Shown piece after piece: positions 16,258 through 56,560 of a DNA stretch of 64,000 nt (within the stretch, counting starts at the first letter, position 1; every line of letters starts with the position of its first letter). Source of the stretch: Glaucostegus cemiculus (Eukaryota). The stretch spans positions 8,618,001 through 8,682,000 of the forward strand of contig CDPCPM010000180.1 in the NCBI GenBank assembly GCA_976551045.1, written 5' to 3'. The notes beneath the pieces were generated by a model, which did not search any database, was not told where the DNA came from, and saw only the letters and a program-made list of their open reading frames with translations. A program made the position numbers and the translations under genes.

Positions 16258-16505
16258 AAGGTGGCACGGTAGCATAGCGGTCAGCATGATGCTATTACAG
16301 CACCAGCAATTGGGGTTCGATTCCCGTTGCTGTCCGTAGGGAGTTTGTACGTTCTCCCATGTCTGCGTGGGTTTCCGCTGGGTGCTCCGGTTTCATCCCA
16401 CATTCTAAAGAGATATGGGTAGGTTAATTTGGGTTTAAAATGGGCAGCATGGACTCGTTGGGCCGGAAGGGCCTGTTACCACGCTGTAAATAAAATAAAA
16501 AAAAT
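16258..16505 (+). mobile_element. tRNA-derived V-SINE (HE1-like), CR1-type tail
   Basis: A-box-like TAGCATAGCGG, B box GGTTCGATTCC, V-domain, and a tail ending in (TAAAA)n. Confidence 0.88.
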
Positions 16506-18089: not shown

Positions 18090-20699
18090 GCAAGGGGCAA
18101 GCAAATAAGCACGGTGGGATTGATGGGTTCATTTCAACACTAGGAGTAATATGGGCAAGGAGGTTGAATGTAGAGTTTGGATCAGTACATGGAATTACTA
18201 TGTTGTTGCCATTACAGAGACCTGGATGTGTGAGGGACAGGTCTGGCAGATGATTTAGATGAGATAGAGAGGGGGTGAAAGAGGTGGAGGGGTTGCCCTA
18301 TTGATAGGGAGATGTCACAGCAGTACCCAGAGAGGACACACTGGAGGGCTCATCCACAGAGACAATTTGGGTGGAGCTCAAAAATAAGAAAGGTGCAGTT
18401 ACATTTGATGGGATTATACTACAGGCACCCCCCCCCAATAGCTACTGAGAGGTGGAGAAACAGGTATATAGACAGATTATGGAAAGATGAATAAACAACA
18501 GGGTTGTCATAGTGGGGGACTTTAACTCCCTCAGTATTGACTGGAACTTACTTAATGCAAAAAGCTTGGGATTTCTTCGGTGCATCCAAGAGGGGGTTCT
18601 TGAAACAGTACATGGAGAGTCCAACTAGAGGAGAGAACATACTGGATCTGGTTTTGGGAAATGATCCAGGCCAGATGACAGACCTGTCAGTAGGTGAACA
18701 TTTTGAGAATAGTGACCACGATTCATTATGCTTTAAGATAGTTATGAGTAAGGATAAAATTGGATCTTCCAAGAATGTACTAAATTGGGGGAGGGAAAAT
18801 TATGACAGGATAAGGCAGGAGCTAAGGGGCGTTGACTGGGAACAGCTGCTGTCGGACAGTCCACTTCTGACAATGTAGGAGTTGTTTAAAGACCAGCTGA
18901 TCAGAGTGCAGGATCAGCATGTTCCAGTAAGGAGTGAGGACAAGGATGGCAAGGTAAGAGAACATTGGATGAACTGAGAGGTCCTAAGTTTAGTCGGGAA
19001 GAAAAAGGAAGCATACATAAGGTTTAGGAAGCTAAAATCAAACAGGGCTCTTGTGGAATATAAAACTAGCAAGAAAGTGCTCAAGCAGTTAATTAGGAAG
19101 GCCAGAAGGGGCCATGAAATGCTCTCAGTGGGTAGGATCAAGGAGAATCCCAAGGCATTTTATACTTAAATAAAGAAAAAGAGGATACTAAGGAGAGGGA
19201 GGTACACTCAAGGATAAAGTGCTTGGAGTCAGAGCAGGTGGCTAAGGTGCTAAATAAGTAATTTGTGTCAGTATTTACCGAGAAGAAGGAATTGGAAGAT
19301 AGGGAAAACAGAGTGGGGCATGGTAATGTGCTGAGATATTTTGAGATTAAGCAGGAGTTAGTGCCTGGTCTTCTGAAAAGCATTAAAGTGGATAAGTCCT
19401 CAGGGCCTAATGGCATATATCTCAGAATATTGAAAGAAGGAAGTCAGGAGATTGCTGGAGCTTTGACAAGGATCTTTGTGTCCTCACTAGCAACAGATGA
19501 GGTCCTGGAGGACCGGAGTGTAGCAAACATTGTGCCTTTTTTCAGGAAGGGAAATAGGGATAATCCAGGTAATTAGAGGCCAGTGAACTTCACGTCAGTC
19601 GTAGGGAAGCTATTGGAGAGGATACTTGAGGGAGAGGATTTATGTGCATTTGGAAAGATGTGGCCTGCTTAGGGGCAGTCAGCATGGCTTTGTGCAGGGC
19701 AGGTCATGTCTTACAAACTTGATTGAGTTTCTTGATGAGGCGACAAAGGTGCTTGATGAAGATAAAGCAGTAGATGTTATCTATGTGGACCTTAGTAAGG
19801 CATTTGATAGGGACAATCATGCTTGCCTTCATTGGTAGGGGTGTTGAGTATTAGAGTAAGGAAGTCATGCTGCATCTGTGTAAAACTTCAGTCAGACTAC
19901 ACTTCCAGCATTGTGCGCAGTTTAAATTAAATTTTAAATTTTATTTACAGCCTGGTAACAGGCCCTTTCGGCCCAACGAGTCCACGCCGCCCCATTTTAA
20001 ACCCCCAAATTAACCTACCCGTATGTCTTTTATAATGTGGGAGGAAACCGGAGCACCCGGAGGAAACCCACGCAGACACGGGAGAACGTACAAACTCCTT
20101 ACAGTCAGCGACGGGAATCGAATCCCGATAGCTGGCGCTGTGACAGCATCGCGCTAACCGCTACGCTATCGCCCTTTAGAAGAATGATGTGGAAACTGTG
20201 GAGAGGGTGCAGAAGAGGTTCACCAGGATGCTGCCAGGATTAGAGGGCATGAGCTATAAGGAAAGGTTGGACAAACTTGGGTTGCTCTCCCTAGAGCATC
20301 GGAGGCTGAGGGGAGACCTGATAGAGGTTTTTAAAATTATGAGATACATAGATAGGGTAGACAGTCAGAATCTTTCCCCCAGGGTAGAAACGCCAAACAC
20401 CAGAGGACATGTTTGTAAGGTTATGTGGAGGCGGAAGGAGTTTAAAGGCAACATGAGAGGCAAGATTTTTACGCAGGGTAGTGGTAGATGCCTGGAATGG
20501 GTTACCAGGGGTAAAAGTGGAATCAGGCGTTTGATAGAGTTTATGGGGCTTTTAGATAGACGCATGAATATGAAGGGAATGGAGGGATATGGATGGTATG
20601 CAGGAAGAGGACATTTGGTATAAATTGGCATCAAGATCGGCACAGATTGGCATCAAGAATGGCCTGTATCGTACAGTACCATTCCATGTTTTATGTTCT
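18090..20699 (+). mobile_element. Degenerate CR1 LINE (APE-RT ORF2 remnants), internally deleted
   Basis: Fragments ITETW, GDFN, ILDLVLGNDPGQ, SDH, QHGFVQGRSCLTNLIEF, YVDLSKAFD, RVQKRFTRMLPGL. Several stops and frameshifts; the FADD region is missing (jump at ~19812); ttatgttcta tail. Confidence 0.9.
19922..20174 (-). mobile_element. V-SINE (young, CpG-rich) nested in CR1
   Basis: Near-identical to copies at 25779-26034, 43710-43972 and 52662-52912; AT-rich tail tttaaattaaattttaaatttt. Confidence 0.9.
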
Positions 20700-22747
20700 A
20701 AACATGTAAGGTCCTAAGGGGGTTTGACAGGGTAAATGTAGAGATGTTTCCAGCAGTGGGAGAGTCACAAACAAACCATGAAATAAGGAGCCAATTGTTT
20801 AAAACTGAGGTGCGAAGTAATTTATTCTTTCAGAGAACCTCTGGAATTCTCTGGCCCCGAGGGCAGTGAAGGCCAGGTCATTAGAAATATTTTAGGATGC
20901 AGAAAGATAAATACTTGAAAGACTGAGAAACTGAGTGTTATGGGGAACTGGGACAGAAGAGGAGTTGAGGCTAGCGGGGCATGCTTCAGGGGCCGAGGGG
21001 CTGAGGGGCCGAGGGGCCTACTCCTGCTGCTATTTTCTCAGGATCTTGTAACCTCCTCCTGCCCTAAAATCCCCATATTTTCATTCTTCTAATCCTGGGG
21101 CTCTGTGGATTTTAGGTGTTTCATCGTCGGGAGCTGACCTTCAGCTGCCATCAAGTCAAGTCCAGTTTATTGTCACGTGCACAGTACGGTGAGGCACAGG
21201 TACAATGAAAAACTTGCTTGCAGCAGCATCACGGGCACCAGGCATGTAGATTCAGACAATAACACACAGAACATAAATTATACAAGACAGTGAAGAAAAA
21301 GTCTGTGCAAAAAAAGACATTAGTGCAAAGAAACACAATCAGAAACAAGTCCATGGTAGTGTAAGAGGCAGTCCATAATTGCTGAGGTAAGATTAGGGTT
21401 GTGCATCACCTTAGCCTCTGAAATTCCCTTTCTAAACCTTTTTACTTCTCTATATACATCTTTTTTAAGGCCCTCATTTGTCTTGGTCTTTTCACTCGCC
21501 TAATTTATACTTCTGTTTGATAGAAGCACTTGTGAAGCAACATGCGAATGGTGCTATATAAATGCAGGTTGTTGATGTTGAAATGTAATTGTACTGAAAT
21601 GCTGTTGTTACAGATTAACCCTTCTGTTTAATGAAAGTGACACATAAAAGATTTGAGGTAAGGGTCAGGGACCATGAAGTCAGGGACCAAGTGACAGAAA
21701 CAGCTTGATAGCTGGCTACAATTCAGAATACTTAGTGCATGAGTTGAAAAAACAGCAAAAGTGATGTTCCTTGTGAATCCGCACTGGAGCAAGGGTCGTT
21801 TACTTTTGACTTAGAAAACACAGCTTTGGTGTCAGAATTTGCAGATCTCTCCAAAGTGGCTGGCAAAGGAATGCATCAAAATACAGAAAAACATAAACTG
21901 ATTTATGAAGTGGGTGCTAAACAGCAAATGAAATTCAATATTGCAAAATGTGAAGTGATTTAATTTGGCAGTGAAAGGAGAAATGAAACATTTATTCTGT
22001 GGGTTCAAGAAACAAAGAGACTTGGGAATGTAGATATATCAATTGCAAAATTAAGCCAGATAACCTGATAATGCCATGAACAGTACCAAGCATCTGAAAG
22101 AAAGCAAAAACTTTCATTTACATAAAACTTGTCACATCCCTTTCAGGAATTTCCAATATACTCTTCAGCCAATAAAATTAATATTAAGGCTTAGTTCCTG
22201 TTCCAATATAATAGTTAAGTTCCATGATCAGATAGCAATTAGATAATTGGTTTTAGTTCTATTGATTGAATAATCTTGAGGTTAATTCTTGTTTAGCACC
22301 ATTGGACATTGTATGTCCCCTTAAGAGTTTACTGTCCCATCCAAAAGACAGGACCTTCAACAGTTTTGTGTTGAAGTACCAGCAAAGAATTTTGTTCTCA
22401 AATATCTGGAGTGGAACTTGAACCCACAATGTATTGAGTTAGACGTAACTTTGCTTCCAATTTAGCCACAGCTGATAACAGGCTAGTCACTAGGAGAAAA
22501 GAATACAGGGTCAGGCAGGCAATACCAAATTTATAAAGAAGAATCGTGCACAACGTTTCTTGTGAAAATGCATTTGAGGGTCTCATGAATGTCATGAGAG
22601 CTCTTTGCAATTGTTAGTTCAACTGCGCTTCATTGTTAAATGGGCTAATGGAGTTCAGTGGAGTGCTGACTTGCTGCAGTTTCTTGTTAGGTGCATTGCC
22701 TCTTTATCAACTCCATTAATTTCAATGCAGAGGCACAGCTTCCAGGA

Positions 22748-23030
22748 AGATAAGATATTTTTATTAGTCACATGTACATCAAAACACGCAGCAGAGTGTT
22801 CTGGGGGCATCCCACAAGTGTCGCCATGCTTCTGGCGCCAACATAGCATGTCCACAACTTCCTAACCCATACATCTTTGGAATGTGGGAGGAAAAATGGA
22901 GCACCCAGAGGAAACCCACACAGCCACAGAGAGAACGTACAACCTCCTTACAGACAGCAGCCGGAATTGAACCTGGGTTGCTGGCACTGTAATAGCATTA
23001 CACTAACCGCTACACTACTGTGCCTGCCCT
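22748..23030 (-). mobile_element. V-SINE, alternative-tail subfamily
   Basis: agataagatattttattagtcacatgtacatc...gtgttctgggggcatcccacaagtgtcgccatgcttctggcgcc tail joined to the V-domain and tRNA-like head. Confidence 0.85.
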
Positions 23031-23419
23031 CTACACTACCATGTAAAGGGTAATCCTTACACCATGTGAGGGGTGCCTTGGAGGTAAATTTACATTATTT
23101 TGAATTGCATGCATTTAATTTGAATTTGCTAAATTTCATTGTTCTCAAGTGTTCTCCTGCTTTAATTGTTTAATTATTTTTATTATTTAAATTTAATTTT
23201 AAACTATTTTAATAGTATGATTAATATTTAATAACCTTTGACTATTTGATAATGTCAGTGACAGCTCTGACTGCTGGTGATTTTACCAGCTGTCATGGCA
23301 TTTCTGGGGAGGGGCTTCACTTTTGTCACAAGGCTTTGTGCTGTGCAGAGCAACTGGATCAGGAGCTGGCTCCTGGGACAAAGTTGACGCTGGAGTTATG
23401 TAAAGGCAGGAGTGACAGA

Positions 23420-25778: not shown

Positions 25779-26034
25779 TTAAATTTATTTTAAATTTTAT
25801 TTACAGCGTGGTAACAGGCCCTTTCGGCCCAACGAGTCCGCACCACCCATTTTAAACCCCCAAGTTAACCTACCCGTACATTTTTTAGAATGTGGGAGGA
25901 AACTGTAGCACCTGGAGGAAACCCACGCAGACGCGGGAGAACGTACAAACTCCTTACAGTCAGCGACGGGAATCAAACCCCAATCGTTGGCGCTGTAACA
26001 GTGTCACGCTAACCGCTACACTATCATGCCGCCC
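25779..26034 (-). mobile_element. V-SINE (young), CR1-type tail
   Basis: Same family as 19922-20174; lies in the intron between pseudo-exons 13 and 14. Confidence 0.9.
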
Positions 26035-31602: not shown

Positions 31603-32620
31603 TACGTGGAATTACGTGGAAAATTTCTGGTTGCCATTTTTATGGCACGTTAAAATAAATAATATTTTGCTTTAAAATCTCTTTGCCGATTGGATAATAA
31701 CATATTCCCATATCACAGTCTGGGATGTGTGTCTATTTTTCCATTATAAGGATTTGGATGCAAGCTTTGTCCTAATGCTTAGTTTTTAGAAATATTTGCC
31801 CAAAGTCTCTTAACTTCAGTAGGCAGCTGAATGAGAAAACAGAACACTTGATAGCCATCTCTAGTTATTCAGAAAGATTCCTCAGAGATTGATGTTATTC
31901 CATATGGCAGCAAAAGGCTGCAAAAGGAATGATATTCCTTTGGCAGAAGGAATAAAGGCTAAAGGCGTAGACTATGTTCCAAATGGGAGTGAATTCAGAA
32001 ATCAGAGGTGCAAAGGGACTTGGGAGTCCTAGTTCAAGATCGCAGGATTCACTAAAGGTTAACTTGCAGGTTGAGTCAGTAGTAAGGAAGACAAGTGCAA
32101 TGTTAGTATTCATTTAGAGAGGACAAGAATGTAAAAGCAAGGATGTAATGCTGAGGCTTTATAAGGCATTGGTCAGACCACATTTGTAGTATTGTGAGCA
32201 GTTTTGGGCCACATATATAAGGAAGGATATGCTGGCGGTGGAGAGGCTGCAGAGGAGGTTTGCAAGAATGATCCCAGGGATGAAAGGGTTAATGTATGAG
32301 GAGCATTTGATGGCTCTGGGCCTACACTCACTGGAGTTTAGAAGGATGAGGGGGAATCTCATTGAAACCTATGGAATATTGAAAGGCCTGGATACAGTGG
32401 ACATGGAGAGGATATTTCCAGTACTGGGAGAGTCTAGGACCAGAGGGCACAGCCTCAGAATAGAAGGACGTCCCTTTAGAACTGAAATGAGGAGGAATTT
32501 CTTTAGCCAGAGGGTGGAGTTCATTGCCACAGGCGGCTGTGGAGGCCAAGTCATTGGGTACATTTAAAGCGGAATTTTACAGGTTCTTGATTAGGAAGGG
32601 CATCAAAGGCTATGGGGAGA

Positions 32621-35600
32621 ATCAGAATCAGAATCAGAATCAGTTTTTATTGTCACAACCATATACATACATAGTATGCATAGGAGCGAGATACCGTCCT
32701 CCTCAGGTGCTCGTCCCATTAAATAACATAACAACTAACAGAGACACACATACACACTTGACAGAATAAACATTACAAAACATTAGACATTAAAAGCTAC
32801 GGAAGTTAAAATTAAATTAGTACGCAGATTAAATTAAAAATGGCCAGTAAATAAATAAATAGTTATTAAAGTGAACGGACTGGTGTCGGGCATTTAAAGT
32901 GCTGGTGCATTTCTGTGCACCTAGCATCTCTTAGTGTTAACAAAGGAAGATGGAGGGATGAGAGAGTTTGCAGTTCTGATGGCTTGCGGAAAGAAGCTAT
33001 TGTTCAGCCTGGTCGTTCTTGCCCTGACACATTTAAGCCTCCTCCCTGATGGCAAAATTGTAAAGAGGTGGTGGGAGGGGTGAGAAGGGTCGGCCATTAT
33101 GCTTTTGGTCTTCCTCACACAACGGTCTTTGTATATGTCTGCGAGGGATGGAAGCGAGACACCTATGATCCACTCTGCAGCCCTAACTATCTTCTGGAGG
33201 GACTTCCGCCCAGCAGCTGAGCAGCTTCCAAACCAAACAGTGATACATTGAGTTAGGATGCTCTCAATGGTCCCCCTATAGAAGGTTTTCATGACGGAGG
33301 GATGGGGGTACGCTTTCCTCAGTCTCTGCAGGAAGTAGAGGCGTTTCTGAGCTTTCTTCGTGAGGGCCGTAATGTTAGTGGACCAGGTCAGGTCGTCGGT
33401 GATGTGCACCCCCAGGAACTTGGTGCTGCGTACTTGTTCCACAGCAGACCCGTTGATGGTCAGTGGGGCGTGCACACGGTGACCCCTCCTAAAATCCACT
33501 ATTATCTCCTTGGTTTTATCCACATTCAAGGAGAGGTTGTTGTCATGGCACCACACGGCTAGTTGTTTCACCTCCTCTCTGTAGTCCGACTCATCGTCAT
33601 TCGTGACAAGACCCACCACTGTCGTGTCATCGGCAAATTTAACAATGCGGTTGGAGCTGGATCTGGCCTCACAGTCGTGAGTCAACAAGGTGAACAGGAG
33701 CGGACTGAGCACACAACCCTGTGGGGAGCCAGTGCTCAGTGTGATGGTGTTTGAGGTGTTTTCACCAATTTTGACTGACTGCGGCCTGCAAGTTAGAAAA
33801 TCCAGTATCCAGTTGCAGAGAGGAGAGTTAATGCCCAGAGCGCTCAACTTCCTGATTAGCTGTTGCGGGATGATGGTATTGAAAGCGGAGCTGAAGTCGA
33901 TGAATAGCAGCCGGCAGTATGAGTCCTTCTTCTCTAAGTGATATAGTGCAGAGTGCATGGCAGAGAAGACTGCATCATTGGTGGATCTGTTTGCCCGATA
34001 AGCATACTGATGAGGATCCAAGGATGAGGGGAGGGAGGCTCTAATGTGCTTCATAACTAGCCTCTCAAAGCATTTCATGACAATCGGTGTTAGAGCTATG
34101 GGACGGTAGTCATTCAGACACATTGGAGGTGACTTCTTAGGAACAGGTATGATGGTGGTAGATTTTAGGCACTTAGGAACAACAGCCTGCTGTAGGGAGA
34201 TGTTGAAGATGTCAGCCAGTACATCTTTAAGCTGGTCCGCACAGTCCCTAAGTATCCGCCCCGGTATGTTATCCGGTCCCGCAGCCTTTCGAGGGTTAAC
34301 CTGTAAAAGGGCTTTCCCCACACTGGTTGGGGTGAGTCTCAAAGCCTGTTCTTTTGGCGAAGGCTGGGCTTTTGAGGCAGGTGTATTGTTCATAGCCTCA
34401 AACCTTGCATAAAATTCATTCAACTGGTCTGGTAGTGATGAGTCACCATCACAAACCTGGGGTGGAGCTTTGTAGTCAGTGATGACCTGGATTCCCTTCC
34501 ACAGGCGCCTCGCATCCCTGTCGTTGGTGAAATTATTATTTATATTTTCTGCGTATTGTCGTTTTGCCTTTTTAATACCCCAAGACAGATCTTTCCTTGC
34601 AGACTTCAGAGCTTCCTCATCCCTCGCCCTGAAAGCTGCATCTCTGGTACGTAGCAGACAGCGAACCTCCCCAGTCATCCAGGGCTTCTGATTTGCCCTC
34701 ACTGTAATCACTTTGTCCACAGTTACATCTTCAGTGCACTTTCTGATGTAGCATAGTACAGAGTCTGTATACTCTTGGATATCAATGTGGTTGTCCTGAG
34801 TGGCTGCCTCTTTGAAGGTGTTCCAGTCTGTAGTTTCCAGGCAATCCTGTAGGGCTAAGACTTTTCCTTCAGGCCAAACCCGAGTCAGTATCTTGACTGG
34901 TTTGTCCAGTTTCACCCCAGGTCTATATGCAGGCTTCAGCAGAATGGAGATGTGATCCGATGAGCCCAGGTGAGGGAGGGGGGATACTCTGTATGCCTCC
35001 TTCACACTGGTGTAAACCTTATCCAGTGTATTATTCTCTCTGGTCGCAAAGTTTATGTGTTGGTGAAACTTAGGCAGGACTGCCTTTAGATCTGTGTGGT
35101 TGAATTCCCCCAATACGATGAAGAATGCATCAGGATGAGCGGTCTGTTGTTTACTGATGGCATCATATAATTCGTTCAGTGTCTCTCTAGCATTGGCACT
35201 GGGAGGGATGTACACCATCCCCATTATAATACTTGTGAAGTCCCTTGGCAGATAGTATGGCCGACACTTTAAGAACAGAGACTCCACTATAGCTGAGCAA
35301 TGCTTATAGACAACCACAGCATCCTGGCACCATGCCTTGTTGATGTATACACAGAGACCACCCCCTCGCGTTTTGCCAGAAAGTGATGCTGTCCTGTCAG
35401 CTCTGTGAAGGGAGAGGCCGTCCAACTGTATGGCTGTGTCCGGAATGTTCTCGTTCAGCCACGTCTCTGTAAAAACCAGGGCACAGCAATCCCTCACCTC
35501 CCGCCGAGTAGTCCTCTGTAATCTCAGCTGGTCCAGTTGCTTGTGCAGTGAGCGGATATTTGCCAACAGAATAGATGGTACAGCCGATCGATGAGGGTTA

Positions 35601-35903
35601 GCCTTCAGCCTAACCCCGATGCCCCCACGCTTGCCACGCTTCCGGGCTCTCTCGCACCACCTCCGGCGCCTTCTCCCTACCTCCTTAGACACTGACGAGT
35701 CCAAGGTCTGTGCTGGACAACGCCAAAGCCCAAGCAGCCTTAACAGTTCCACAGGGACACCTCTGTTACAGGTCTTCCAATGAATCACTGATCTTCCCAC
35801 ATTCATCAAAAACTGTCGACTGTACCTCAGCCCTGAAGTTCCACAGTCAGCCAGCCCGGTTGTTCCGCTTTGGTACCCACGACCCCGGACACCTCCTTGT
35901 CCG
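32621..35903 (-). mobile_element. Rex1/Babar-clade LINE, near full-length, young
   Basis: Single long APE+RT ORF, 3' UTR ending gtgacaataaaaa followed by a (GATTCT)n tail; inserted in a CR1 3' UTR. Confidence 0.93.
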
Positions 35904-35947
35904 GAAGGCAGGAGAATAAGGTTGAGAGGGAAAAATAAATCAGCCAT
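32921..35947 (-). CDS. Rex1/Babar APE endonuclease-reverse transcriptase ORF (1008 aa as called; first ~15 aa derive from flanking CR1)
   Basis: Motifs [25 protein letters not shown] (normally GDFN), LDKVY, SDH; RT motifs [47 protein letters not shown]. No stops. Confidence 0.9.
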
Positions 35948-36977
35948 GATTGAATGGTAGAACAGACTTGATGGGTCGAATGGCCTAATTCTGCTCCTAT
36001 GTTTTATGGAAATACTGCTTCAAACAGGGTACAAAGGGATTGTGCTTTTTATAGGAATCTGGCGATCTGCTGGAGTGCTCTTTTTTATGATTCTCACAAT
36101 TATTTGTGAACAGCAATTACACTATTTCTATCAATAAATTGTTATGATTCTCATTGTTCTGTTGGTATTTTCTCAGCTTTGGAATGAGAAAGCTTAACAA
36201 CAGAATCAAATAAACTGGGAGGAATTTGGTCTGGATTACAAGAATATTTTATTTAAAGTCTTGTGTTGTTCTATTGCTTATGTACATATATAATGCTGTG
36301 AGACTTAACCAGTATAATAAAAAATAAGGTCTTAAGCTGCTTAAGAAAGCAGCACACGTGTGCTTATGTAGATATGTAACATAGTCTTAAATTTGATTCT
36401 TATTCTTACATTGAAAGTGGGCATTGTTGCAAAGGACAGCATTGAATGTCCACCTCTAATTTCCCTTGAGAAGTGGATGTGAGCTGCCTTCCTGAATTGC
36501 TGCTGTTCTTGGGTTGAAGGTATTCCCACAGTACAGTTGTTAGAATCTTCTTGACACAATAATGATATATTTTTAAACAGCATGCTGCCTGACTTTGAGG
36601 GGAACACGGGTGGTTTTCCTAAGTGCCTCTATAGATCCAGAAAAAGAATAGCTGGCGTTCTAATCTGGTTATTGCTAATGGGGAAAGTTATGTAAAGTAT
36701 TGTTGATAAAATGAATTGTAATAATACTAGTCCCATATTAATGTCATGGGCCTGTCACACAATGCGATTGGTCTAAAATAGTATAATAAAAATTTGATTC
36801 ACAGTTCAGCTGCCCAATAATTCATTGGAAAACAATTAAATGTGATTAGACATGTGCAATTTTTTCAGACAAAGATTGTAAATCCCTGTGGAATAATGGC
36901 TATGTAAGCACTTTGGCATTGCACCGGAAACATCCCTGTAACAGTTGTAGCTATTGATGTGTTTTTGCCAGACTTAC

Positions 36978-37090
36978 CAGGTGAAAAAATGCCATCTGTT
37001 TCATCAGATGACCATTCAACCATTGTCGACAATTTCTTCAAAATGATTTCTTCCATGATGGTCAAAACAGGAACTATTTCATTTGTGAAC
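36978..37090 (-). pseudogene. gad3: GAD pseudo-exon equivalent to GAD1 exon 7 (113 bp, open, splice sites intact)
   Basis: tttcaaag|[39 protein letters not shown]|gtaagt versus [38 protein letters not shown]. Confidence 0.93.
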
Positions 37091-37689
37091 CTTTGAAAAA
37101 TAACATAATATGCCAATTATATGCTTTTAAACTCCATTGAGCTATACTTTAAAATATTCAACAAGCAAAATTACTGTGATGATCAGGATAAATCTCGCTA
37201 TGAATCATTATGAGCTATAACAAAGATTTTTCAATGATAACATTTTCAAAATCCTTATCAGAAGGTGATACTTTAACATATATTTGGTTTGCTAGATTTA
37301 AAACATATTGGGAACCTTGCTATTGGGACACTGAAGTGCTTTGTGTCTGATAATGTGTTGTAGTGTCAGAACAAAAGGTCAAAAAAGCACTCTAATATCA
37401 TTTCAGCTTCCTCCATCTGCACTTGTTATATAATAACTGTTCAACATCACATTTGCTGCTTTAAACTATTTAGGCGTAAACAGACTTGATTAGCTTTCAT
37501 GTGTATAAATTTGGTTGAGCATGAATATTAGAAAGGGAAAATCACACAAGAAAATCCAATCTGTGGCATATTGTGAATGGAGGAGACCGAACACAGAGAA
37601 TTTTGAGAGACCCATTTTGCGACACAAAAGATAACAAAACGTGTAGCTTCTGCATATGAAGTGACAACTTTGGAGAGCACGAAAGAAAC

Positions 37690-38676
37690 AATCAGAATCA
37701 GAATCAGTTTTATTGTCACAACCACATACATACAAAGTATGCAGAGGAGCGATATACCGTCCTCCTCAGGTGCTCGTCCCATACAAAAATAACATAACAA
37801 CCAACAGAGAGACACATACACACTTGGCAGAATGCATAGTACAGATCATTACACCTTAAAAGCTAAGGGGATTGAACTTAAATTCAGGATCAATTTATCG
37901 ATTTTCACTTACACGTATACATGTGCAAAAGACATCAAAGACAATAAAGGACACCTGGACAAAAACATCAAAACATTAACAGCCCCCCTGCCTCACCCCG
38001 CACCGACGACCACCTCCAACCCCCTCCAACCCCCGCAGTCCTACAACCTCAGGGCCCACAGACCATCAACAACCTCCGGCCCCGCAGTCCGACCACCTCC
38101 GGCCCCTTCGCCTCCGGCCCCGCAGGCCGACGACCCCCGGCTCCTTCGCCTCCGGCCCCGCAGGCCGACGACCCCCGGCTCCTTCGCCTCCGACTCCGCA
38201 GTCCGACGACCTCCGGCCCCGAATTCCGGCCTCGCAGTCCGACGACCTCCGGCCCCGAATTCCGGCCTCGCAGTCCGACGGCCTCCGGCCCCGAATTCCG
38301 GCCTCGCAGTCCGACGGCCTCCGGCCCCGAATTCCGGCCTCGCAGTCCGACGGCCTCCGGCCCGAATTCCGACTCCGCAGTCCGACGACCTCAAGCCCCG
38401 CAGGCCGACCACCTCCGGCCCGAGCAGCCCCCTCACCACCCGCATCCCGACGCCACCACGAGGCTCCCGGGCCTTCAAGACGCTGCCGCCTCCGATGAGC
38501 TCCGACGAGCCGTCGGAGCCGACAGTACCGACAACGACTCCATAAAACGGCACACAAACATCAAGAACAAAGAACACACAAGAAAAAAACACAGAAAAAC
38601 ACTAGAAGACTAACAAAAAAAGACAAGGACTACAGACCTGGGAGAGGCCGCTGCAACCAGGTGCGCCGCCATCTTA
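37690..38676 (-). mobile_element. Non-autonomous Rex1-derived retroelement with internal GC-rich VNTR
   Basis: The 3' ~145 bp and (GATTCT)n tail are highly similar to the Rex1 3' end at 32621-32770; the 5' end starts AAGATGGCGGCG; no RT remnant seen; the middle is a tandem array. Confidence 0.8.
38070..38430 (+). repeat. CpG-rich minisatellite (36-bp unit x4 plus partial; related 38-bp unit x2)
   Basis: Unit cgcagtccgacggcctccggccccgaattccggcct repeated near-perfectly; upstream unit cttcgcctccggccccgcaggccgacgacccccggctc. Confidence 0.95.
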
Positions 38677-39259
38677 AGTCAACAACATGTTTTAGTAGTT
38701 CTCCATGTCTCTTTCTGATTCATTGTATTCCTGGCACCACACATTGTAAGACATAAGGACCTGCATTTATGTTACAAATTCATGATAGCTATAGGACATA
38801 TGAACCACCACGTGAAAATAAAATGGGTGTTTGTGTCAGGCAATGAGATTTAACTATGAGCTGACAACACTTGTGACCACAGTGGAAGTTCGAAATATTG
38901 GCAGCACTTCTGGGAGCAGCAGTAAACCCTGAGTCCCAATTAAAAAGTGTGGGCATGCAGGTGAATACAGACCATAATTCCATGTAAGATTTGGCTTGAA
39001 AGGCTCTGGGGCAAATGCTTTGGGTAAACACTAGCATGATTCTTGTGGAGAAGAGCAAAGGTACACAAAATCATACAAATAGTGGAGCAAATTTAGGTCT
39101 ATATATACTGCAATTAGAGAACTCCAACAGCTCAATGAAGGGAAATCACATTAAGAAACATTGCAATTAGTTTAATGAGTCACAGGGTGCAATCATTAAG
39201 CTAAATAGACAGTGAGGTGGCAGGAAACTTTACATGTTGTGGTGTGACATTAGCTTTGA

Positions 39260-42754: not shown

Positions 42755-43990
42755 GAGAACCCAGAGGGCTAACAGGGGTTATGTAATGTCCTTGGAGAAT
42801 AGGATTAAAGACAATCCCAAAGCATTTTATACATACTTTAAAAACAAAAGGATAGCTTGACAGAGGGTAGAACCAGTCAAAGACAATGGAGGGAATTCAT
42901 GCCTGGAGCCAGGGGAAATGGGCAAGGCACTCAACATGTACCTGGAAGATAGTGAGATCAGGGTGGGCTATGTTGATATTCTAGGACATGTTGATATCAA
43001 AGAGAAGGAGGTGCTGGGTCTCTTGAAGCAGATTCACGTGATTAAGTCCCTAGGTGCTGGCGGGATTGATCCCAGAGAGAAGAGAGAAAAACGCTGGGGC
43101 CTTGATCTTTGTGTCCTCTTTAGCCACGGGCGAGATCCCAGAGGACTGGAGAACAGCCAGTGTTGTTCCTCTGCTAAAGAAGGGCAATAGAGACAAACCA
43201 GGAAATTATAGTCCAGTGAACCTTATATATCAGTGACAGGGAAATTATTGGAGAAGATTCTTAAGGATAGGATCTACTCTGGAAAAAGCATAGACCTATT
43301 TGGAATAGTCAGTATGGCTTTTTTCAGGGGAGGCCATAATCTTACAAATGGATTGATTTAGAGATGGTGCTGAAGTTGTTCGCAGGATGTTACCTGGATT
43401 AGAGAGTGTTAGCTATAAGGAGAAGTTGGACAAACTTGGAGTGCTTGCAGCTAAGCAACAACCTGATAAAAGTATAGTAAATTATATGGCAAGTTTTTTT
43501 ACACAGAAAATGGCAGGTGCCTGGAACACATTGCCAGGGGAAGTGGTGGAAGCAGATCTGATAGCAATGTTTAAAGAGTTTAGATAAGACACATGAACAG
43601 GCAGGGAATTGAAGCATATAGACCATGAGCAGGCAGATGTGCAGTTTAAGTTGGCATTGTGGTCAACACAGACCTTGTGGACTGAAGGGCCAGTTACTGT
43701 GCAGTACGATGGGCGGCACGATAGCGTAGCGGTTAGTGTGGCGTTGTTACAGCGCCAGCGATCAGTGTTTGATTCCCGTCGCTGACTGTAAGGAGTTTGT
43801 ACGTTCTCCCGTATCTGCGTGGGTTTCCTCCGGGTGCTCCAGTTTTCTCCCACATTCTGAAAGACGTACAGGTAGGTTAATTTGGGGGTTTAAACAATGG
43901 GCAGCATGGACTCGTTGGGCCGAAAGGGCCTGTTACCACGCTGTAAATAAAATTTAAAAATTTAATTTAAAAAACTGTTCTATGTTCTAC
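42755..43990 (+). mobile_element. Degenerate CR1 fragments with V-SINE (43710-43972) inserted in the 3' tail
   Basis: IKDNPKAFYTY, PEDWRTASVVPLLKKGNRDKPGNYSPV, MLPGLESVSYKEKLDKLG; tail ctgttctatgttcta resumes after the SINE. Confidence 0.8.
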
Positions 43991-46205: not shown

Positions 46206-49200
46206 CTAACTCTTTCCACCCTCATATCCTACTATTCCACATTCTTCCATGTGCTTATCTAACAATCTCTTAAACCTGTCCAATGTATCTGCCTCCACTA
46301 CCACCCCAGGCAGTGCATTCCATGCACCAAGCACTCTCTGGGTGAAAAACTTCCCTCTGACATCTCCCCTATACTTTCCACCAATTATCTTAAAGGCATG
46401 CCCTCTCGTCTTGAGCATCTGCGCTCTGGGAAAGAGGCGCTGACTATTAACTCTATCTATTCCTCTCAATACCTTAGACACCTCTATCAAGTCCCCTCTC
46501 ATCCTCCTCCTCTCTAATGAGTAGAGCCCTAGCACCTTAAGCCTCTCTTTATATTCCATACCCTCCAATCCAGGCATCATCATGGTAAATCGCCTCTGCA
46601 CCCTCTCCAACGCCTCCACATCCTTCCTATAATGCAGCGACCAGAACTGAACACAATATTCCAAGTGCGGCCTAACTAGAGTTTTGTAAAGCAGCATCAT
46701 CACCTCTCTGCTCTTGAACTCAATCCCTTTATTTATAAAAGCCAACATCCCATAAGCCTTCTTAACAGCCCTATCCACCTGCGAGGCAACTTTGAGTGAA
46801 CTGTGGATATGAACCCCCAGGTCCCTCTGCTCCTCTACACTGCCAAGAACCTTGCCATTTACCTTATACTCTGTCCTGGAGTTTGTCCTCCCAAAGTGCA
46901 CCACCTCACACTTCTCTGGATTAAACTCCATCTGCCACCTGTCAGCCCGGTTCTGCATCCCATCAATATCCCCCTGTAAGCTCCTACAGTCCTCCACACT
47001 ATCTACCACACCACCGATCTTGGTGTCATCTGCAAACTTACCAACCCATCCCTCCACTCCTTCATCTAAATCATCTATGAATATAACAAAGAGTAGAGGC
47101 CCCAGAACCGATCCCTGCGGGACTCCACTAGTCACAGCCCTCCAATCCGAGGGCACTCCCTCCACCACAACCCTCTGCCTTCTACAGGAAAGCCAATTTC
47201 TTATCCACACAGCCAACCTCCCCTGGATACCTCGACCTCTGATCTTGTGAAGAAGCCTGCCTTGATGAACCTTATCGAACTCCTTACTAAAATCCATGTA
47301 CACTACACCCACCGCCCTGCCCTCATCAAGCTTCCTCGTCACCTCCTCAAAGAACTCTATCAGGCTCGTGAGGCAAGATCTTTTTTTCACAAAGCCATGC
47401 TGACTGTCCCTAATCAGTTCATGACTCTCCAAGTACTCATAGATCCTATCCCTCAAAATCCTTTCCAACAGCTTACCTACCACAGACGTGAGACTCACCG
47501 GTCTGTAATTTCCCAGACTATCTCTACTGCCCTTCTTAAACAAGGGAACAACATTCGCTACCCGCCAATCTTCCGGCACCATCCCCGTGGACAACGAGGA
47601 CTCAAAGATCCTCACCAGCAGATCAACAATCTCCTCCCTCGCCTCCCGAAGCAGCCTGGGGAATATTCCATCGGGCCCCGGAGACTTATCAGTCTTGATA
47701 TTACTTAACAATTTCATCACCTCCTCCCTCTCTATAGCTACATACTCAAGAACATTACCCTTGTCAGCACTCACCGTCACATCATCAAGGCCCCTCTCCT
47801 TGGTGAATACAGAGGAGAAGTATTCATTTAGTACCTCCCCTACCTCTGCTGCCTCCAGGCACATCCTCCCACCTTTGTCCTTAATAGGACCTACCTTTAC
47901 CCTAGTCATCCTTCTGCCCTTCACATAAGAGAAAAAAGCCTTGGGATTTTCCTTAACCCTACGAGCCAACATCTTTTCATGTCCCCTTCTAGCTTTCCTC
48001 AGCTCTTTCTTAAGTTCCCTTCTCACTATACTATACTCCTCACGGGCCACATCAGAGCCTTGCCGCTTACACCTTACGTAAGCCTCCTTCTTCCTCCTAA
48101 CCAGTCTTTCCACCTCTCTTGTCACCCACGGTTCCTTCACTATTCCATTCTTCCTCCGTCTTGCCGGAACATATTTGTCCCCAACATCCTGTAAAACATC
48201 CCTGAACAACGTCCACATCTCTACAGTACACATTCCCTCAAAAAGGACTTCCCAATTTACACTCCCAAGTTCTTTCCTTATAGCCTCATAGTCTGCCCTA
48301 CCCCAATTGAATATCTTCCTATGCTCCCTGCACCTATGTCTGTCCATGACAATTCTAAAGCTTATCGAGGAATGATCACTGTCTCCCAGAGGCTCACCCA
48401 CTAGTAGATCTCTCACCTGTCCCAGTTCATTTCCTAAAACCAGATCCAACACAGCATTCCCTCTAGTCGGTTTGTCAACATACTGCTCCAGAAATCTATC
48501 CTGGACACACTTAACAAACTCATTCCCATCCAAGCCTCTGGCACTGAGCATGTCCCAGTCTACATTCGGGAAGTTGAAATCACCCATTATTACAACTCTA
48601 TTATCTTTGCTTCTGTCCAAGCACTGCCTGCCAATCTGCTCCTCTATATCCCTACTGCTACCTGGGGGCCTATAGTATACTCCCAGCAGCGTAACCACAC
48701 TTTTCCTATTCCTCACTTCCACCCACACCGACTCGAAAGAGGATCCTTCCGCAAACTCAGCCCTTTCCGCAGCTGTAACATCATCCCTGACCAATATTGC
48801 CACCCCTCCTCCTCTTCTCCCCCCTTCCCTATCCTTTTTAAAACACTGAAAACCAGGAATGTTCAATACCCACTCCTGCCCTGACGACAGCCATGTCTCA
48901 GTTATGGCTACAATATCATAATCCCCCATATTTATCCAAGCTCTCAATTCATCACCCTTATTCCTAACACTTCTTGCATTAAAGTAAACACACTTTAGTC
49001 CATCCACTTTAACCCTTTTATAGCCTTCATTCTGCCTCTCCCTCCCCAAAGCCTCACCACCTGCTCGATGCAACTCCTCTCCATCTTCACTACACGTCGA
49101 CTTGATCCTGCATACCTCCTCCTCTAAGCCAAGTTGGTTTCCTTTGCCTTGCCTGTTTAGTTTATCCACCTTTTTACTATTACTGCCTGTACACTGCTTC

Positions 49201-49307
49201 TCCTTCCTCAAAGCAACTCTATCTGTCAGATCTGCCTTTTCTGTAATCCCTACATCCTCTGACCAGCCTTCCTGGTTCCCAACCCCCATCCCAACTAGTT
49301 TAAACAC
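46206..49307 (-). CDS. CR1 ORF2: APE endonuclease + reverse transcriptase (1033 aa, uninterrupted)
   Basis: FNARS, ITETWL, YYRPP, GDFN, LDLVL, SDH; KSPGPDG, NYRPVSLTS, QHGF, YMDFSKEFD, PQGSVLGP, KFADD, DLGV. The called start is GTG; first ATG at codon 7. Confidence 0.95.
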   Translation of the reverse strand: MFKLVGMGVGNQEGWSEDVGITEKADLTDRVALRKEKQCTGSNSKKVDKLNRQGKGNQLGLEEEVCRIKSTCSEDGEELHRAGGEALGRERQNEGYKRVKVDGLKCVYFNARSVRNKGDELRAWINMGDYDIVAITETWLSSGQEWVLNIPGFQCFKKDREGGRRGGGVAILVRDDVTAAERAEFAEGSSFESVWVEVRNRKSVVTLLGVYYRPPGSSRDIEEQIGRQCLDRSKDNRVVIMGDFNFPNVDWDMLSARGLDGNEFVKCVQDRFLEQYVDKPTRGNAVLDLVLGNELGQVRDLLVGEPLGDSDHSSISFRIVMDRHRCREHRKIFNWGRADYEAIRKELGSVNWEVLFEGMCTVEMWTLFRDVLQDVGDKYVPARRRKNGIVKEPWVTREVERLVRRKKEAYVRCKRQGSDVAREEYSIVRRELKKELRKARRGHEKMLARRVKENPKAFFSYVKGRRMTRVKVGPIKDKGGRMCLEAAEVGEVLNEYFSSVFTKERGLDDVTVSADKGNVLEYVAIEREEVMKLLSNIKTDKSPGPDGIFPRLLREAREEIVDLLVRIFESSLSTGMVPEDWRVANVVPLFKKGSRDSLGNYRPVSLTSVVGKLLERILRDRIYEYLESHELIRDSQHGFVKKRSCLTSLIEFFEEVTRKLDEGRAVGVVYMDFSKEFDKVHQGRLLHKIRGRGIQGRLAVWIRNWLSCRRQRVVVEGVPSDWRAVTSGVPQGSVLGPLLFVIFIDDLDEGVEGWVGKFADDTKIGGVVDSVEDCRSLQGDIDGMQNRADRWQMEFNPEKCEVVHFGRTNSRTEYKVNGKVLGSVEEQRDLGVHIHSSLKVASQVDRAVKKAYGMLAFINKGIEFKSREVMMLLYKTLVRPHLEYCVQFWSLHYRKDVEALERVQRRFTMMMPGLEGMEYKERLKVLGLYSLERRRMRGDLIEVSKVLRGIDRVNSQRLFPRAQMLKTRGHAFKIIGGKYRGDVRGKFFTQRVLGAWNALPGVVVEADTLDRFKRLLDKHMEECGIVGYEGGKS

Positions 49308-50267
49308 TCATCAACCAACCAAGCATACCGTGCTGCCAGGATATTTGCCCCCCCACCGGTTGGGGTGTAACCAGTCCTCGCTGTACAGGTTCCACCTTCC
49401 CCAGAAGAGATCCCAATTACCCAAAAATCGAAATCCCTCTACACTGCACCACTCTCTCAGCCACGTATTTAACTGCCACCTCTCCCTGTTCCTAACTTTC
49501 CTATCACGTGGCACCGGGGGTAATCCAGAGATTACTACCCTTGAGGTCCTGGTCTTCAGCTTTCTGCCTAGCTCCCTGAACTCCCTTTGCAGGACCTCAT
49601 CCCTCTTTCTACCTATGTCGTTGGTACCAACATGAACCACGACTACTGGCTGCTCTCCCTCCTGCTTGAGAATCCTGGGAACCCGATCAGTAATATCCTG
49701 GACCCTGGCACCAGGGAGGCAACATACCCGGTATTCATGATCACTTCCACAGAATCTCCTATCTGTTTCCCTGACTATCGAGTCTCCTATCACCACTGCA
49801 TTACTCTTCACCTTCTTCCCCATCTGAGCAGTAGTACTGGTCATGGTGCCAGTGACCTGGGTACTAGTGCTTGGTCCCTGCAGGCTATCCCCCTCTACAG
49901 TTTCCAAAGTTGAAAACCTGTTACTGAGGGGAACAGCCCCCGGGGTGTCCTGCTCTACCCGCCTGTCTGCCTTCTTCTTCCTCTTCTCTCCCCTGACAGT
50001 CACCATTCTGTCTGATACCTGAGCTACAGTAGAACCTGCTCTAAGGGGGGTGACTGTCTCCTGATGAACTGTATCTACATAGCTCTCTCCCTCCCGTATG
50101 CTGCGCAGTGTCTGCAGCTGCGACTCCAGCTCAACAACTCTGAGCCGAAGTTCCTCCAGCCACACACACTTGCTGCAGATGTAGTCAGTGTGGACCGCAG
50201 TACGGTTCACGACCTCCCACGTCAAGCAGCTGCAGCATACGAGCCTGTCCTCCCCCTGACTGTCCAT
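49295..50267 (-). CDS. CR1 ORF1: Cys-rich zinc finger/leucine zipper + SGNH esterase domain (one extra G near the C-terminus)
   Basis: ATG at 50267; CCSC...CSKC, LEELRLRVVELESQL, GDSIVR, VHVGTNDIG, DWLHPN. As assembled it stops at 49311; removing one G from the G7 run (49348-49354) restores WGANILAARYAWLVDECLN* ending at 49295. Confidence 0.88.
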
Positions 50268-51169
50268 CTTTGACCTGGCTAAATCGGACCCACAAACTGT
50301 AATAGGCGACAAAGAAACCTTACCTCCGTCTACTTACCAGATACTTACTTACTCGCCTTGCCCCTTCTCGCCGAAACCCCTTGAGCCTAAGCCCAGGTCA
50401 CTCTGCTTCCTCTCACTCCGCTGCCCGCTCTGACGCTGCCCACTCTACAGGCCGGTTGCCTTTTTAAGCTGCCCGCGCCACGCCTGCGCAGACCAGCCCC
50501 CACTCAAGCACTTAAAAACTTTTACAACCCTACTCAATTACCTTAAATAAACACACTAACCCTAGTTAATTCTACCCCTAATGGAATCTAACCCTTACTC
50601 TTACGATCTAATAAAAAGGATAGAAAGAAAACACTTAACTGCCCTGAAGACCTCCGAAGCCTTCCGAAGTCCCCCAAGTCGAAACACTAATCCCCCGATT
50701 AGTTTTTTAAGGCAATGCTGTTTGAGGGATAAATGTGAGCTCGAGGACAGCAGGGACAATGCCTCTACTTTTCTTCAAAATAATGTCAATGTGTATTCTA
50801 TGCCAAATGGAAAGAGCAGACGACTGACGACCCCTGTGTTACTGTTGTTTAGGTTATGGAAATTTGCCATTACAGAATTCACCAGTCACTATCTAAAAAT
50901 GTGAGAAATGGAATAAAATTCACTATCATGGAATTTGTGTTAAAAAAGTAACTAAGTCAGCACAAAATTTATATCTTTTTTACCTTGCAGATGACGCAGC
51001 TCTGTATCATGCAAAATCGTGATTTGGCTCACTTTCTAGGAACACCCCCCCCTGTAATGTGAGGGTCTCCTGTACTGGCATTATATCCAGTGTATATTGC
51101 TCCAAAGAGGGTGCAGCAACAGATCTCAGCTGAAAAAATAAACGTATGGTATGGACATGTAACTTACAA

Positions 51170-52661: not shown

Positions 52662-52912
52662 CTTTAGATTTTTAGATTTAGATTTTATTTACAGAGTGGT
52701 AACAGGCCCTTTCGGCCCAACGTGTACACGCCGCCCATTTTAAACCACCAAATTAACCTACCCGTATGTCTTTCAGAATGTGGGAGGAAACCGTAGCACC
52801 CAGAGGAAACCCACGCAGACACGGGAGAACGTACAAACTCCTTGCAGTCAGCAACAGGAATCAAACCCCGATCGTTGGCACTGTAACAGTGTCGTGCTAA
52901 CCGCTACGCTAT
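52662..52912 (-). mobile_element. V-SINE (young), CR1-type tail
   Basis: Same family as 19922-20174, with tttaga repeats in the tail. Confidence 0.88.
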
Positions 52913-53239
52913 CAATCCAAAAGCAATATACAGTGGATACTGGAAACCTGTATTATGGCTACATTATGGCTAGGTGAGAGACAGGAACAAAATTGGGTAT
53001 TTTGAAGATCAGGTAAGTACAGATAGTTATCAAGAACAAATCTTGGATTGATGTGAATGAGTTGAACAGACTGGTACCATCTAGAGTCAACTCATGCATC
53101 AAATAACATGTGTGATAGAAACAATCCCACCAAACTCTGAACTGAGCATAAGCCACTGTGGATAAGTAACCAGTCACTGAGATGTGTATATGACAAACAA
53201 GAAGAAAATGTGGACACAAAGACTAATCATGCCAGGCTT

Positions 53240-55139: not shown

Positions 55140-56560
55140 ATCATAGAATCACAGACAATGTACAGTTGTGAAGGAGGCCATTTGGCCTATCCAGAATGTG
55201 CTGATTGAAAAAGATTTACTCCCACCTTCCATCATTAGGTCCATAGCTCTGCAGGTTAAGTCTCTAAACACAGATTCAAACTCTGTTTAAGTGTGATCAG
55301 ATTTCTACCCTTAACCCCCCATTTTAGACGACAGAGTGTAAAACATTTTTCTCAACTACCCTTTAATGCTATACCTATGCAATAGCTTCTTCCCTCAAGC
55401 TATTAGAACTGTGAACTCCCTCATCCCTCCATCACTCCCGCTAACACTTAAGGATGCTAGGCGTACAGAAACGCACCAGCTCTTTAAATGCCCGCTGCCA
55501 GTACGCTCACTTTAAGATTTTTTATTTAAGTTGTATAATTTAATTTTGTGGTTCTAATGATTTTAGGGTCTTTCTGTCTTTGTGTCTCTCAGTGTTTGTT
55601 TCTCTCTTTTTTTAATGTGACGTACACCTTGACCTGTGGAGTACGGTATTTCGCTCCTATGCATACTGTATGTGTGTATGGTAGTGATAATAAAACTGAT
55701 TCTGATGTCCTTAAGGCTCTTAATTTTATATACCTCGGTTAAATCTCCCCTCAGCCTCTTCTGTTTCAGAGAAAACAATATTAGCCACAATTTTCCAGAG
55801 CCCTCATAAATCTCTTCTTTACTGTGTGAAATGCAATCACATCTTTCCTATAATGCAGTGACTGGAATTGCAATAAGTACTCAGTTGTTATATAGTTTTA
55901 GCCTAACTTCCCAGCTCTTGCATTCCATGCATTAACTAATTAAGGAAAGTATCGCGTGTGTCATTTTAGCCACCTTGTTGATCTGTCCTATTGCCTTTCA
56001 GGATCTGTAGACATGCTTTCCAAGATCCCTCTGTTCCTCCCACCTCTCAATATCTTTCTCTTTATTGTGAGTTCCCTGATTGTGAATTCCCTGGGCTTAT
56101 TGCATCTCCCCAAATCCATTACTTCACACATCTTTGATCTTCCAGTCCTGTTCCACAACTCCTTAGTCAGAGTAGACTGAAAAGAATGTGTCAGAGCCTC
56201 TGCAATTTTCTCCCTTCAGTCAGACCAGGATTGTTTCATCTGGACCTGATCATTTATTCATTTTCAAAGATGATAAATCTCTTAGTACTTCCTTTTTTAC
56301 TTTGGCTATCACGTCCAATGTTAGATACCTGTATTTGCTTACCTTAAACACGTTGTAATGCAACATTACAACATTGTACTGTTAAAATATTGTAACAATA
56401 ACATTGGTATTATTTCCCCCCTTTTCTGTAGTTACTAAATGTTCATTAAACATATATTCCACCTTTCCATGCTGGTTACCTTTTAGGTCTCTAATATGTC
56501 CTAATATTTCTTTAATTATCTTCTTGCCCTTAATGTACTAATTAAATGTCTTTGGACTTC
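55140..56560 (-). mobile_element. Old CR1 fragments (interrupted by a Rex1 3' end)
   Basis: LFSLKQKRLRGDLTEVYKI (55563-55790), tail gaatcatagaatca at ~55138-55150, and further decayed RT pieces. Confidence 0.65.
55379..55706 (+). mobile_element. 5'-truncated Rex1/Babar copy
   Basis: [18 protein letters not shown] matches the end of the 1008-aa ORF; ends gtgataataaaactgattctgat. Confidence 0.9.

Follow-up and report, generated by a model that had tools for sequence, protein, structure and literature searches.

A candidate Rex1-derived non-autonomous retroelement with an internal CpG-rich tandem array in Glaucostegus cemiculus

Anatomy of the element and of its Rex1-type neighbors

We analyzed a stretch of 64,000 nucleotides from Glaucostegus cemiculus, referred to here as the window, which harbors a minus-strand unit running from 38676 to 37690. 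The unit opens with TAAGATGGCGGCG and continues through a T-rich stretch and a GC-rich middle to a tail of GATTCT repeats. Its parts, together with the Rex1-type sequences that bear on it, are as follows:

37690 to 38676, minus strand: whole element, 987 nt, inserted as one unit, as delimited by empty orthologous sites and by the fall in contig depth past 38676
38610 to 38676, minus strand: head, assigned from its sequence to the Rex1 5' end; ATG at 38672, 20 codons (MAAHLVAAASPRSVVLVFFC), then TAG
38541 to 38635, minus strand: T-rich stretch, 62% T, with weak tblastn matches to Rex1-type N-termini
38422 to 38540, minus strand: GC-rich non-tandem spacer, GC 0.70, CpG observed/expected 1.12
38034 to 38421, minus strand: GC/CpG-rich tandem array of about 11 units sharing one core
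38033 to 37981, minus strand: G-rich degenerate array edge, part of the segment 37885 to 38033
37980 to 37885, minus strand: T-rich 3' segment, 96 nt, without counterpart in the neighboring Rex1, whose 3' UTR alignment ends at 37884
37690 to 37884, minus strand: Rex1-type 3' tail ending in AATAAAACT(GATTCT)2GATT; presumed recognition and priming signal
32618 to 35903, minus strand: neighboring Rex1-type LINE, 5'-truncated, with an open, stop-free 993-aa frame
35656 to 35676, minus strand: arginine-codon run within the N-terminal basic motif of Rex1, a candidate source of the array core by an ungapped 21-mer match
55380 to 55706, plus strand: third Rex1-type 3' fragment, belonging to a subfamily that is more distant, 69.7% identical over 380 columns to the 3' end of the neighboring LINE

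The first-pass annotation had described a minus-strand unit of about 1 kb with a T-rich stretch, in agreement with the length of 987 nt and with a T content of 62% over 90 nt. Its statement that RT sequence is missing also holds, as no RT or other Pfam domain was detected in the two minus-strand frames tested. ARAGORN called no tRNA in the element and Rfam gave no match on either strand. Of the Pol III boxes, neither of which had been obvious to the first-pass annotation, the A box is absent, and the sole B-box-like 9-mer sits in the tail at 37877. Read from the head ATG, all three frames are closed within 37 codons, the first ending at 20 codons, and none extends to the array. The longest ATG frame in the sense direction spans 134 codons across the array without a Pfam hit, and an antisense frame of 250 aa has no homolog in a protein search of 8000 candidates. 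Folding of the whole element was not better than that of shuffled sequences (z -0.69). A reading as a MITE was dropped because the element has no terminal inverted repeats of note.

TRF placed the middle of the element as the top array of the window, far ahead of the others, with a period of 36, 8.9 copies, 89% matches and a score of 377. When cut at the core, and where measurable, the array yields units of 23, 23 and 35 nt, four of 36 nt, three of 38 nt and two more of 26 and 23 nt, the first boundary being approximate. Its GC content is 0.74 and its CpG observed/expected ratio 1.18, compared with ratios of 0.28 for the window and 0.45 for the neighboring Rex1 frame. The period, the unit sizes and the GC content uphold the earlier description of a GC/CpG-rich tandem array of related 36- and 38-nt units. 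The accompanying claim of almost no CpG decay is correct for the eight central units, which hold 5-6 CpG each, but not for the two units at the 3' edge, which hold 1 CpG and 3-5 TpG each; these CpG-poor, TpG-bearing units imply that CpG decay has begun at the edge of the array. One G-quadruplex-type pattern was observed at the border between spacer and array (38420-38448, minus strand).

Other repeats are present in the window. At 46206-50333 (minus strand) lies a CR1-type LINE with two ORFs, both open: ORF1 encodes a 340-aa GDSL esterase/OSK protein, and ORF2 a 1033-aa protein with endonuclease and RT. A SINE-like family of about 250 bp is represented by nine or more complete or incomplete copies with 75-90% likeness (19921-20171, 25779-26034, 43711-43970, 52677-52914, 16260-16513, 5369-5628, 14139-14309, 22747-23033 and 62793-63098), in which ARAGORN calls no tRNA. 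This family may be a V-SINE with a CR1-type tail of the HE1 kind.

The frame of the neighboring LINE matches RVT_1 (E 1e-35) and ALKBH8_N (E 1e-13) in Pfam, and RT proteins of fish reach 70% identity to its protein (best 120 of 213). Pfam called no endonuclease in this LINE, and many of its homologs carry PF03372. The peptide of the Rex1 forward primer, FSSAFNT, is matched at 7/7 positions, compared with 3/7 at the corresponding position of the CR1-type ORF, and that of the reverse primer at 3/6 at best (primers from the relevant part of PMC4635592). Between this ORF and the CR1-type ORF2, identity is 23% over 867 columns, endonuclease region included. The 3' UTR followed by a (GATTCT)4.3 tail fits the description of Rex1 given in the excerpts of PMC6274825 that concern it. 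The Rex1 clade label is well supported by these likenesses but not proven, since none of the best 120 of 213 homologs bears the name Rex1.

The first-pass annotation had regarded this LINE, 5 kb from the element, as autonomous. Its frame counts 89 residues ahead of GKRGG, where 32 homologs have 77-124, and it lacks roughly 10-15 codons at its 5' end, so that it is not a complete autonomous copy. Because the neighbor lacks its own 5' end, the head and the tail of the element are not traceable to one parent. It sits inside a high-copy repeat, the intact form of which is found at 1255-1590, and its junction shows only a short TTC overlap. Four short joints in contigs of the sequencing runs X1 and X3 (sides of 21-25 nt) link the end of this host repeat at 36009 to a GATTCT tail (37690-37693), which may reflect a preference of Rex1-tailed elements for the microsatellite end of the repeat or may be an artefact.

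The tail of the element shares 86.7% identity with the neighboring Rex1 (32626-32818) across 196 nt and 75.9% with the third copy (55575-55706) across 133 nt. It ends in 2.7 GATTCT units, compared with 4.3 in the neighbor, and the earlier description of the two tails as nearly identical was too strong. Since the tail is only 87% identical, the neighboring Rex1 is a relative and not the parent of the element. The first ~95 nt of the neighbor's 3' UTR do not align to the element. In other contigs, longer GATTCT runs lead into different flanks (a loose end at 37690, 57 contigs). Loose ends in X1 at 37730-37833 resemble the variant tail of the fragment at 55380-55706, which indicates that the last ~100 nt are common to several subfamilies. 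Hairpins predicted in the three tails have z-scores of -1.9, -0.8 and -2.8; given that the structures differ and that double changes occur in 0/23 pairs, no conserved tail structure is shown. By tail comparison, the neighboring LINE would be a relative of the presumed driver, which we infer to be a Rex1 subfamily closer to the element than this neighbor.

Insertion and copy number

Contigs of four out of 14 runs (X1, X3, X8 and X12) were placed on positions 35400-39000 at 85% likeness, run X1 possibly being derived from the window's own sample. In a contig of organism B (X3), 37640 and 38684 are separated by 56 nt, corresponding to the 49 and 7 flank bases of the window; this empty allele confirms the boundaries first proposed. 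In organism C (X8) a contig leaves 4 nt between 37691 and 38684, and for organism E (X12) no join across the site is listed. The element was inserted as one piece, and its site is empty in two of the three other organisms compared; the empty sites that the first-pass annotation had suggested looking for are those of X3 and X8. Considering that the flanks differ by 4-9% between organisms, the insertion most likely postdates their splits. The junction displays no clean target-site duplication, with TGACT before the element and TGATT at its end, and at both this junction and that of the neighboring Rex1 only a short likeness between tail and target is seen.

The flanks of the element have a depth of 3-5 in X1. 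Depth reaches 30,454 in the head, 36,541 in the spacer and 22,640-47,604 in the array, without a dip from head to array and with a fall to flank level just past 38676. The 3' segment reaches 95,106 and 155,442 in its bins and the tail 748,125. The 5' coding bins of the neighboring Rex1 lie at 1,757-4,284, the head being 7-17 times deeper. Over the whole stretch X1 contributes 19,639 contigs, 5,177 of them at least 99% alike. Summed contig depth, which over head, spacer and array amounts to some 4,500-9,400 times that of the flanks, is not equal to copy number, and it was calibrated with simulated k=31 unitigs (random sequence, error-free, star-shaped) that are not themselves Logan contigs. The simulated overcount was 4.5- to 24-fold, with a ceiling of 31-fold. 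The ratio of ~6,000 for the head translates by this simulation, which ignores read errors, indels, ploidy and Logan contig simplification, into about 250-700 copies, and at least ~200 before ploidy caveats. From this model, the number of copies would be roughly of the order of 100-1,000.

That head, array and tail are linked in other copies is suggested by a depth that stays even between head and array and by the sharp 5' edge; no contig spans the element. Within the array, joints in X1 contigs skip 77, 78, 106, 110, 142, 144 and 223 nt (sides of 20-24 nt), approximately multiples of the unit. Short contigs in tandem repeats can yield similar joints by mis-placement, and these joints may reflect either variation in unit number between copies or such mis-placement. 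In X3, X8 and X12 the bins at 37820-38545 have zero cover, which does not prove that these organisms lack the family, and tail depths are 22,846, 6,388 and 590, respectively.

A second full copy of the element was not retrieved from the collections searched. Scans with exact patterns gave no occurrence of the head in metagenome contigs and none of the tail in viral contigs, and scans for related loci returned 9 + 1 loci, none of which matches the element by blastn. A separate observation concerns a 1-kb contig (L010, 1-1007) in a bacterial metagenome-assembled genome, which carries a Rex1-type RT fragment (54% identity) and is probably contamination with host DNA.

The presence of a single full copy in the window, with none retrieved elsewhere, is what a one-off event would leave, in which a full Rex1 inserted and, once its middle was lost, a minisatellite expanded locally. 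Nevertheless, the spacer, which is not tandem, and the 3' segment absent from the neighbor are found at 7,000-31,000 times flank depth, which makes such an event very improbable. With every segment at thousands of times flank depth, the single-copy or one-off-deletion outcome that the first-pass annotation had named as contrary to its proposal is ruled out.

Probable derivation from Rex1 and origin of the array

Rex1-type homologs open with a MAARxxAAAS-like sequence. A profile of N-termini was built from 56 homologs with at least 70 residues before the basic motif, reduced to the 39 with a M-A/V/T-A/T/V start; 32 of the 39 sequences picked by this rule start with MAA. Using this profile, the element head ranks first among 3767 six-frame segments of the window and is alone above the threshold (E 0.004). 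The head is also the best of 2130 window tiles when compared with the first 80 nt of the element at locus L003 (43 vs 28 elsewhere), and it is not singled out in the same test with the start of locus L001 (24 vs a best of 30). Both loci begin reading frames at GATGGCGGCGC. Judged by its sequence, AAGATGGCGGCG spans the start codon of Rex1-type LINEs (K-M-A-A) and is not a generic LINE promoter, AAGATGGCG being read as the codons for K-M-A. The profile and the L003 comparison replace the independent LINE-like promoter head first envisaged with the 5' end and start codon of Rex1 itself. AAGATGGCG also resembles the YY1 consensus and is a candidate YY1 site. In L1, YY1 positions transcription starts (PMC7778262, in the portion dealing with them). 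With the filter off, tblastn aligns the T-rich stretch weakly to P0070, P0243 and P0244 at their N-termini (E 0.002-0.02). The stretch probably consists of decayed codons of the hydrophobic N-terminal segment present in many Rex1-type proteins.

We consider it probable, at about 78%, that the element is a multi-copy non-autonomous derivative of Rex1, whichever origin is given to its array. The best reading is that of a full-length copy of a young bipartite (5' plus 3') Rex1 derivative with an internal CpG-rich array. Since the head, and possibly the array, come from Rex1, a bipartite deletion derivative describes the element better than an SVA-type assembly of foreign parts. The element had been proposed to be a young, Rex1-mobilised composite; it does appear to be young, multi-copy and non-coding, most likely riding on Rex1 enzymes, but a composite with an independent LINE-like head is not supported, given a head that is the start of Rex1.

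According to this reading, an internal deletion in a Rex1/Babar-type LINE would have kept the first ~130 nt, comprising the start codon and hydrophobic N-terminal codons that have since been closed by stops, together with the Rex1 3' tail. Transcription by Pol II would proceed from signals in the kept 5' end. The endonuclease-RT of an autonomous Rex1 subfamily would then bind the shared 3' tail in trans and produce copies by target-primed reverse transcription; mobilisation in trans is suggested by the tail that the element has in common with the Rex1 copies. Pairing of the (GATTCT)n end with a few target bases would explain the junctions seen, which lack a clean target-site duplication. The depth profile would be explained if copying often halts near the GC-rich array, leaving 3' parts more numerous than heads, or alternatively if the deeper 3' segment is shared with an unseen sister LINE. 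The array itself may have grown by slippage, and its CpG richness would result from its youth and from turnover of the central units, while the edge units decay.

A candidate source for the array is the arginine-codon run of the Rex1 basic motif. The array unit at 38112-38092 matches Rex1 at 35676-35656 in 19/21 bases, on the same strand and with arginine codons in both, which is the best ungapped 21-mer for the middle of the element in the rest of the window (63 kb, both strands). A score of 19 was reached by 0/300 dinucleotide shuffles in each of two tests. In gapped tests of array and spacer against the basic-motif region, 1-8/500 shuffles reached the observed score; the best window tile of the spacer is this same region (8/500), the tile in these tests of array origin having been chosen post hoc out of 1259. 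The runner-up 21-mer (18/21, opposite strand) lies within the same Rex1. A G-rich run in L003 also matches in 18/21 bases, and L001 in only 15; matches of 18/21 elsewhere indicate that composition contributes to the likeness. The array escaped detection by a protein profile of the basic motif, for which the best value was E 0.13 with composition correction off. A different source, the first 100 nt of the neighboring Rex1, was rejected for the array unit, with a score of 19 against a window best of 27 (rank 9/1259).

Among 270 relatives, 43 show both the start and the basic motif, 70-120 aa apart. None of these 43 has such an array between the two, and two have a tiny repeat, which implies that the array is not a normal Rex1 feature in that sample; the sample holds no close relative of the element's own lineage. 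A search with the N-terminal 144 aa of Rex1 gave nothing closer than 67% and nothing with an array among the 150 of 669 matches listed, and no close shorter relative of this N-terminus was found in a protein search of 568 candidates. On these sequence comparisons, growth of the array by slippage from the parent's own arginine-codon run has somewhat better than even chances.

The strongest competitor keeps the same family and the same mobilisation and assigns array and spacer to foreign DNA, a GC-rich minisatellite or a piece of host sequence having been taken up between the two Rex1 ends through template switching or recombination. It is a weakened form of the SVA-like composite and departs from the best explanation solely on where the array came from. 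The blindness of the basic-motif profile to the array agrees with a foreign origin, as do a DNA likeness that amounts to one 21-mer in G-rich sequence, matched at 18/21 elsewhere, and the absence from the neighboring Rex1 of the 96-nt segment at 37885-37980 as well. Against it, nothing else in 63 kb matches the middle as well as the Rex1 N-terminal run, on the same strand, with arginine codons in both and at a level unreached by shuffles, and the best tile of the spacer falls in the same run. We regard capture of a foreign array as a real possibility, at about one chance in three.

The array could instead be normal in an unseen autonomous Rex1 subfamily, either in its N-terminal region or in its 3' UTR, with that subfamily as the main source of depth and the present copy as a deletion product. 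We consider this unlikely; an array normal to an autonomous Rex1 was the other outcome that the first-pass annotation had named as contrary to its proposal. The real driver was not found, the tail being 87% identical, and a subfamily less than 85% like the neighbor would escape the Rex1 depth bins; moreover, a 3' segment 3-5 times deeper than the head is what an autonomous sister sharing that segment would produce. Nevertheless, array depth equals head depth, whereas an array in a 3' UTR would exceed it through 5'-truncated copies, and the six best-supported loose ends in X1 (858 over all runs) give no exit from the array into unrelated sequence. The nearly complete N-terminus of the neighbor has no array, nor do any of the 43 relatives, and all ATG frames of the present copy are closed. 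A conventional Pol III SINE carrying a Rex1 tail, of which the tRNA-headed SINE2-5_NV is an example, would share the LINE tail and a non-coding body, but is barely credible for an element with no tRNA, Rfam match or A box, a lone B-box-like 9-mer that lies in the tail at 37877, and a head accounted for as the start of Rex1.

Significance and comparison with known systems

In its relevant sections, Kojima 2018 (PMC5786205) reports bipartite ORF-less non-autonomous LINEs from no more than four clades (RTE, Ingi, Vingi and R2), and leaves open whether this limitation is due to biology or sampling. A bipartite case of the Rex1 type favors sampling, and it bears on what the 5' end of a LINE must supply. 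Each copy of the element would add about 560 nt with a CpG observed/expected ratio near 1.1-1.2 to a setting in which the window ratio is 0.28, making the family a tractable test of whether such CpG patches are methylated or act as promoters. Scoring its presence or absence at orthologous sites would let the element serve to mark lineages. Its interest lies with specialists in mobile elements. As a tentative overall proposal, which we hold to be appreciably less than an even bet, a Rex1-type LINE would have founded a successful passenger family when its own arginine-codon run became a complex CpG-rich minisatellite; this would be a fifth bipartite clade, an independent SVA-type array outside apes, and a lineage-specific source, not yet described, of hundreds of CpG-dense patches in a CpG-depleted genome.

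The literature searched holds neither a non-autonomous Rex1 derivative of such kind nor an SVA-like element from fish, and the portions of PMC7599744, PMC7245038 and PMC4350176 covered contain no Rex1 derivative; Repbase Reports, Dfam and supplements were outside the search and may hold the family. The sea anemone SINE2-5_NV, whose head is tRNA-derived and which is paired with Rex1-24_NV (PMC3747384, in the part devoted to it), is likewise non-autonomous and dependent on a Rex1 tail, whereas the element has no tRNA-derived head. Rex1/Babar elements have a conserved 3' UTR followed by an oligonucleotide repeat (PMC6274825, same excerpts). The element resembles them in that its head and tail match Rex1-type sequences, and differs in having no endonuclease or RT, in its length of about 1 kb instead of about 3.3 kb, and in its array, which is absent from 43 relatives.

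Elements of the SVA type end in poly(A) and have a long target-site duplication. The present element has no poly(A), ending instead in GATTCT repeats without a clean target-site duplication. The VNTR composites SVA, LAVA, PVA and FVA depend on L1 and are, in the passages of Lupan 2015 (PMC4432496) that treat them, the only non-LTR retrotransposons known to those authors with complex internal tandem repeats. Like them, the element has a central array that combines several types of related GC-rich units of 30-50 bp, its own measuring 35, 36 and 38 nt at a GC content of 0.74. In contrast to them, it has neither a CT-hexamer nor an Alu-like 5' domain (there is no hexamer array in the head and no Rfam match), it is neither L1-driven nor from a primate, and both its ends come from one LINE type. 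The architectural convergence with SVA that had been proposed is consequently retained for the central multi-unit GC-rich array and not for the 5' domain, the ends or the driver; the element is SVA-like in layout only, and its origin is different. Given that the same passages of Lupan 2015 offer no non-primate parallel for the evolution of complex GC-rich arrays in retrotransposons, the element family would be an independent one with a testable candidate source.

The bipartite ORF-less LINEs, exemplified by RIME/ingi, NARTc/L1Tc, Bov-A, RTE-N2_Lch and the Vingi derivatives (PMC5786205, same sections), likewise keep only the 5' and 3' ends of a LINE, encode no protein, and are presumed to be transcribed by Pol II and moved in trans. 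The element differs from them in being of the Rex1 type, in a 5' part that is mostly former coding sequence, and in the complex array of ~390 nt in its middle. What it has in common with this group is a LINE 5' end, a LINE 3' end, no LINE protein, and insertion as a unit together with amplification.
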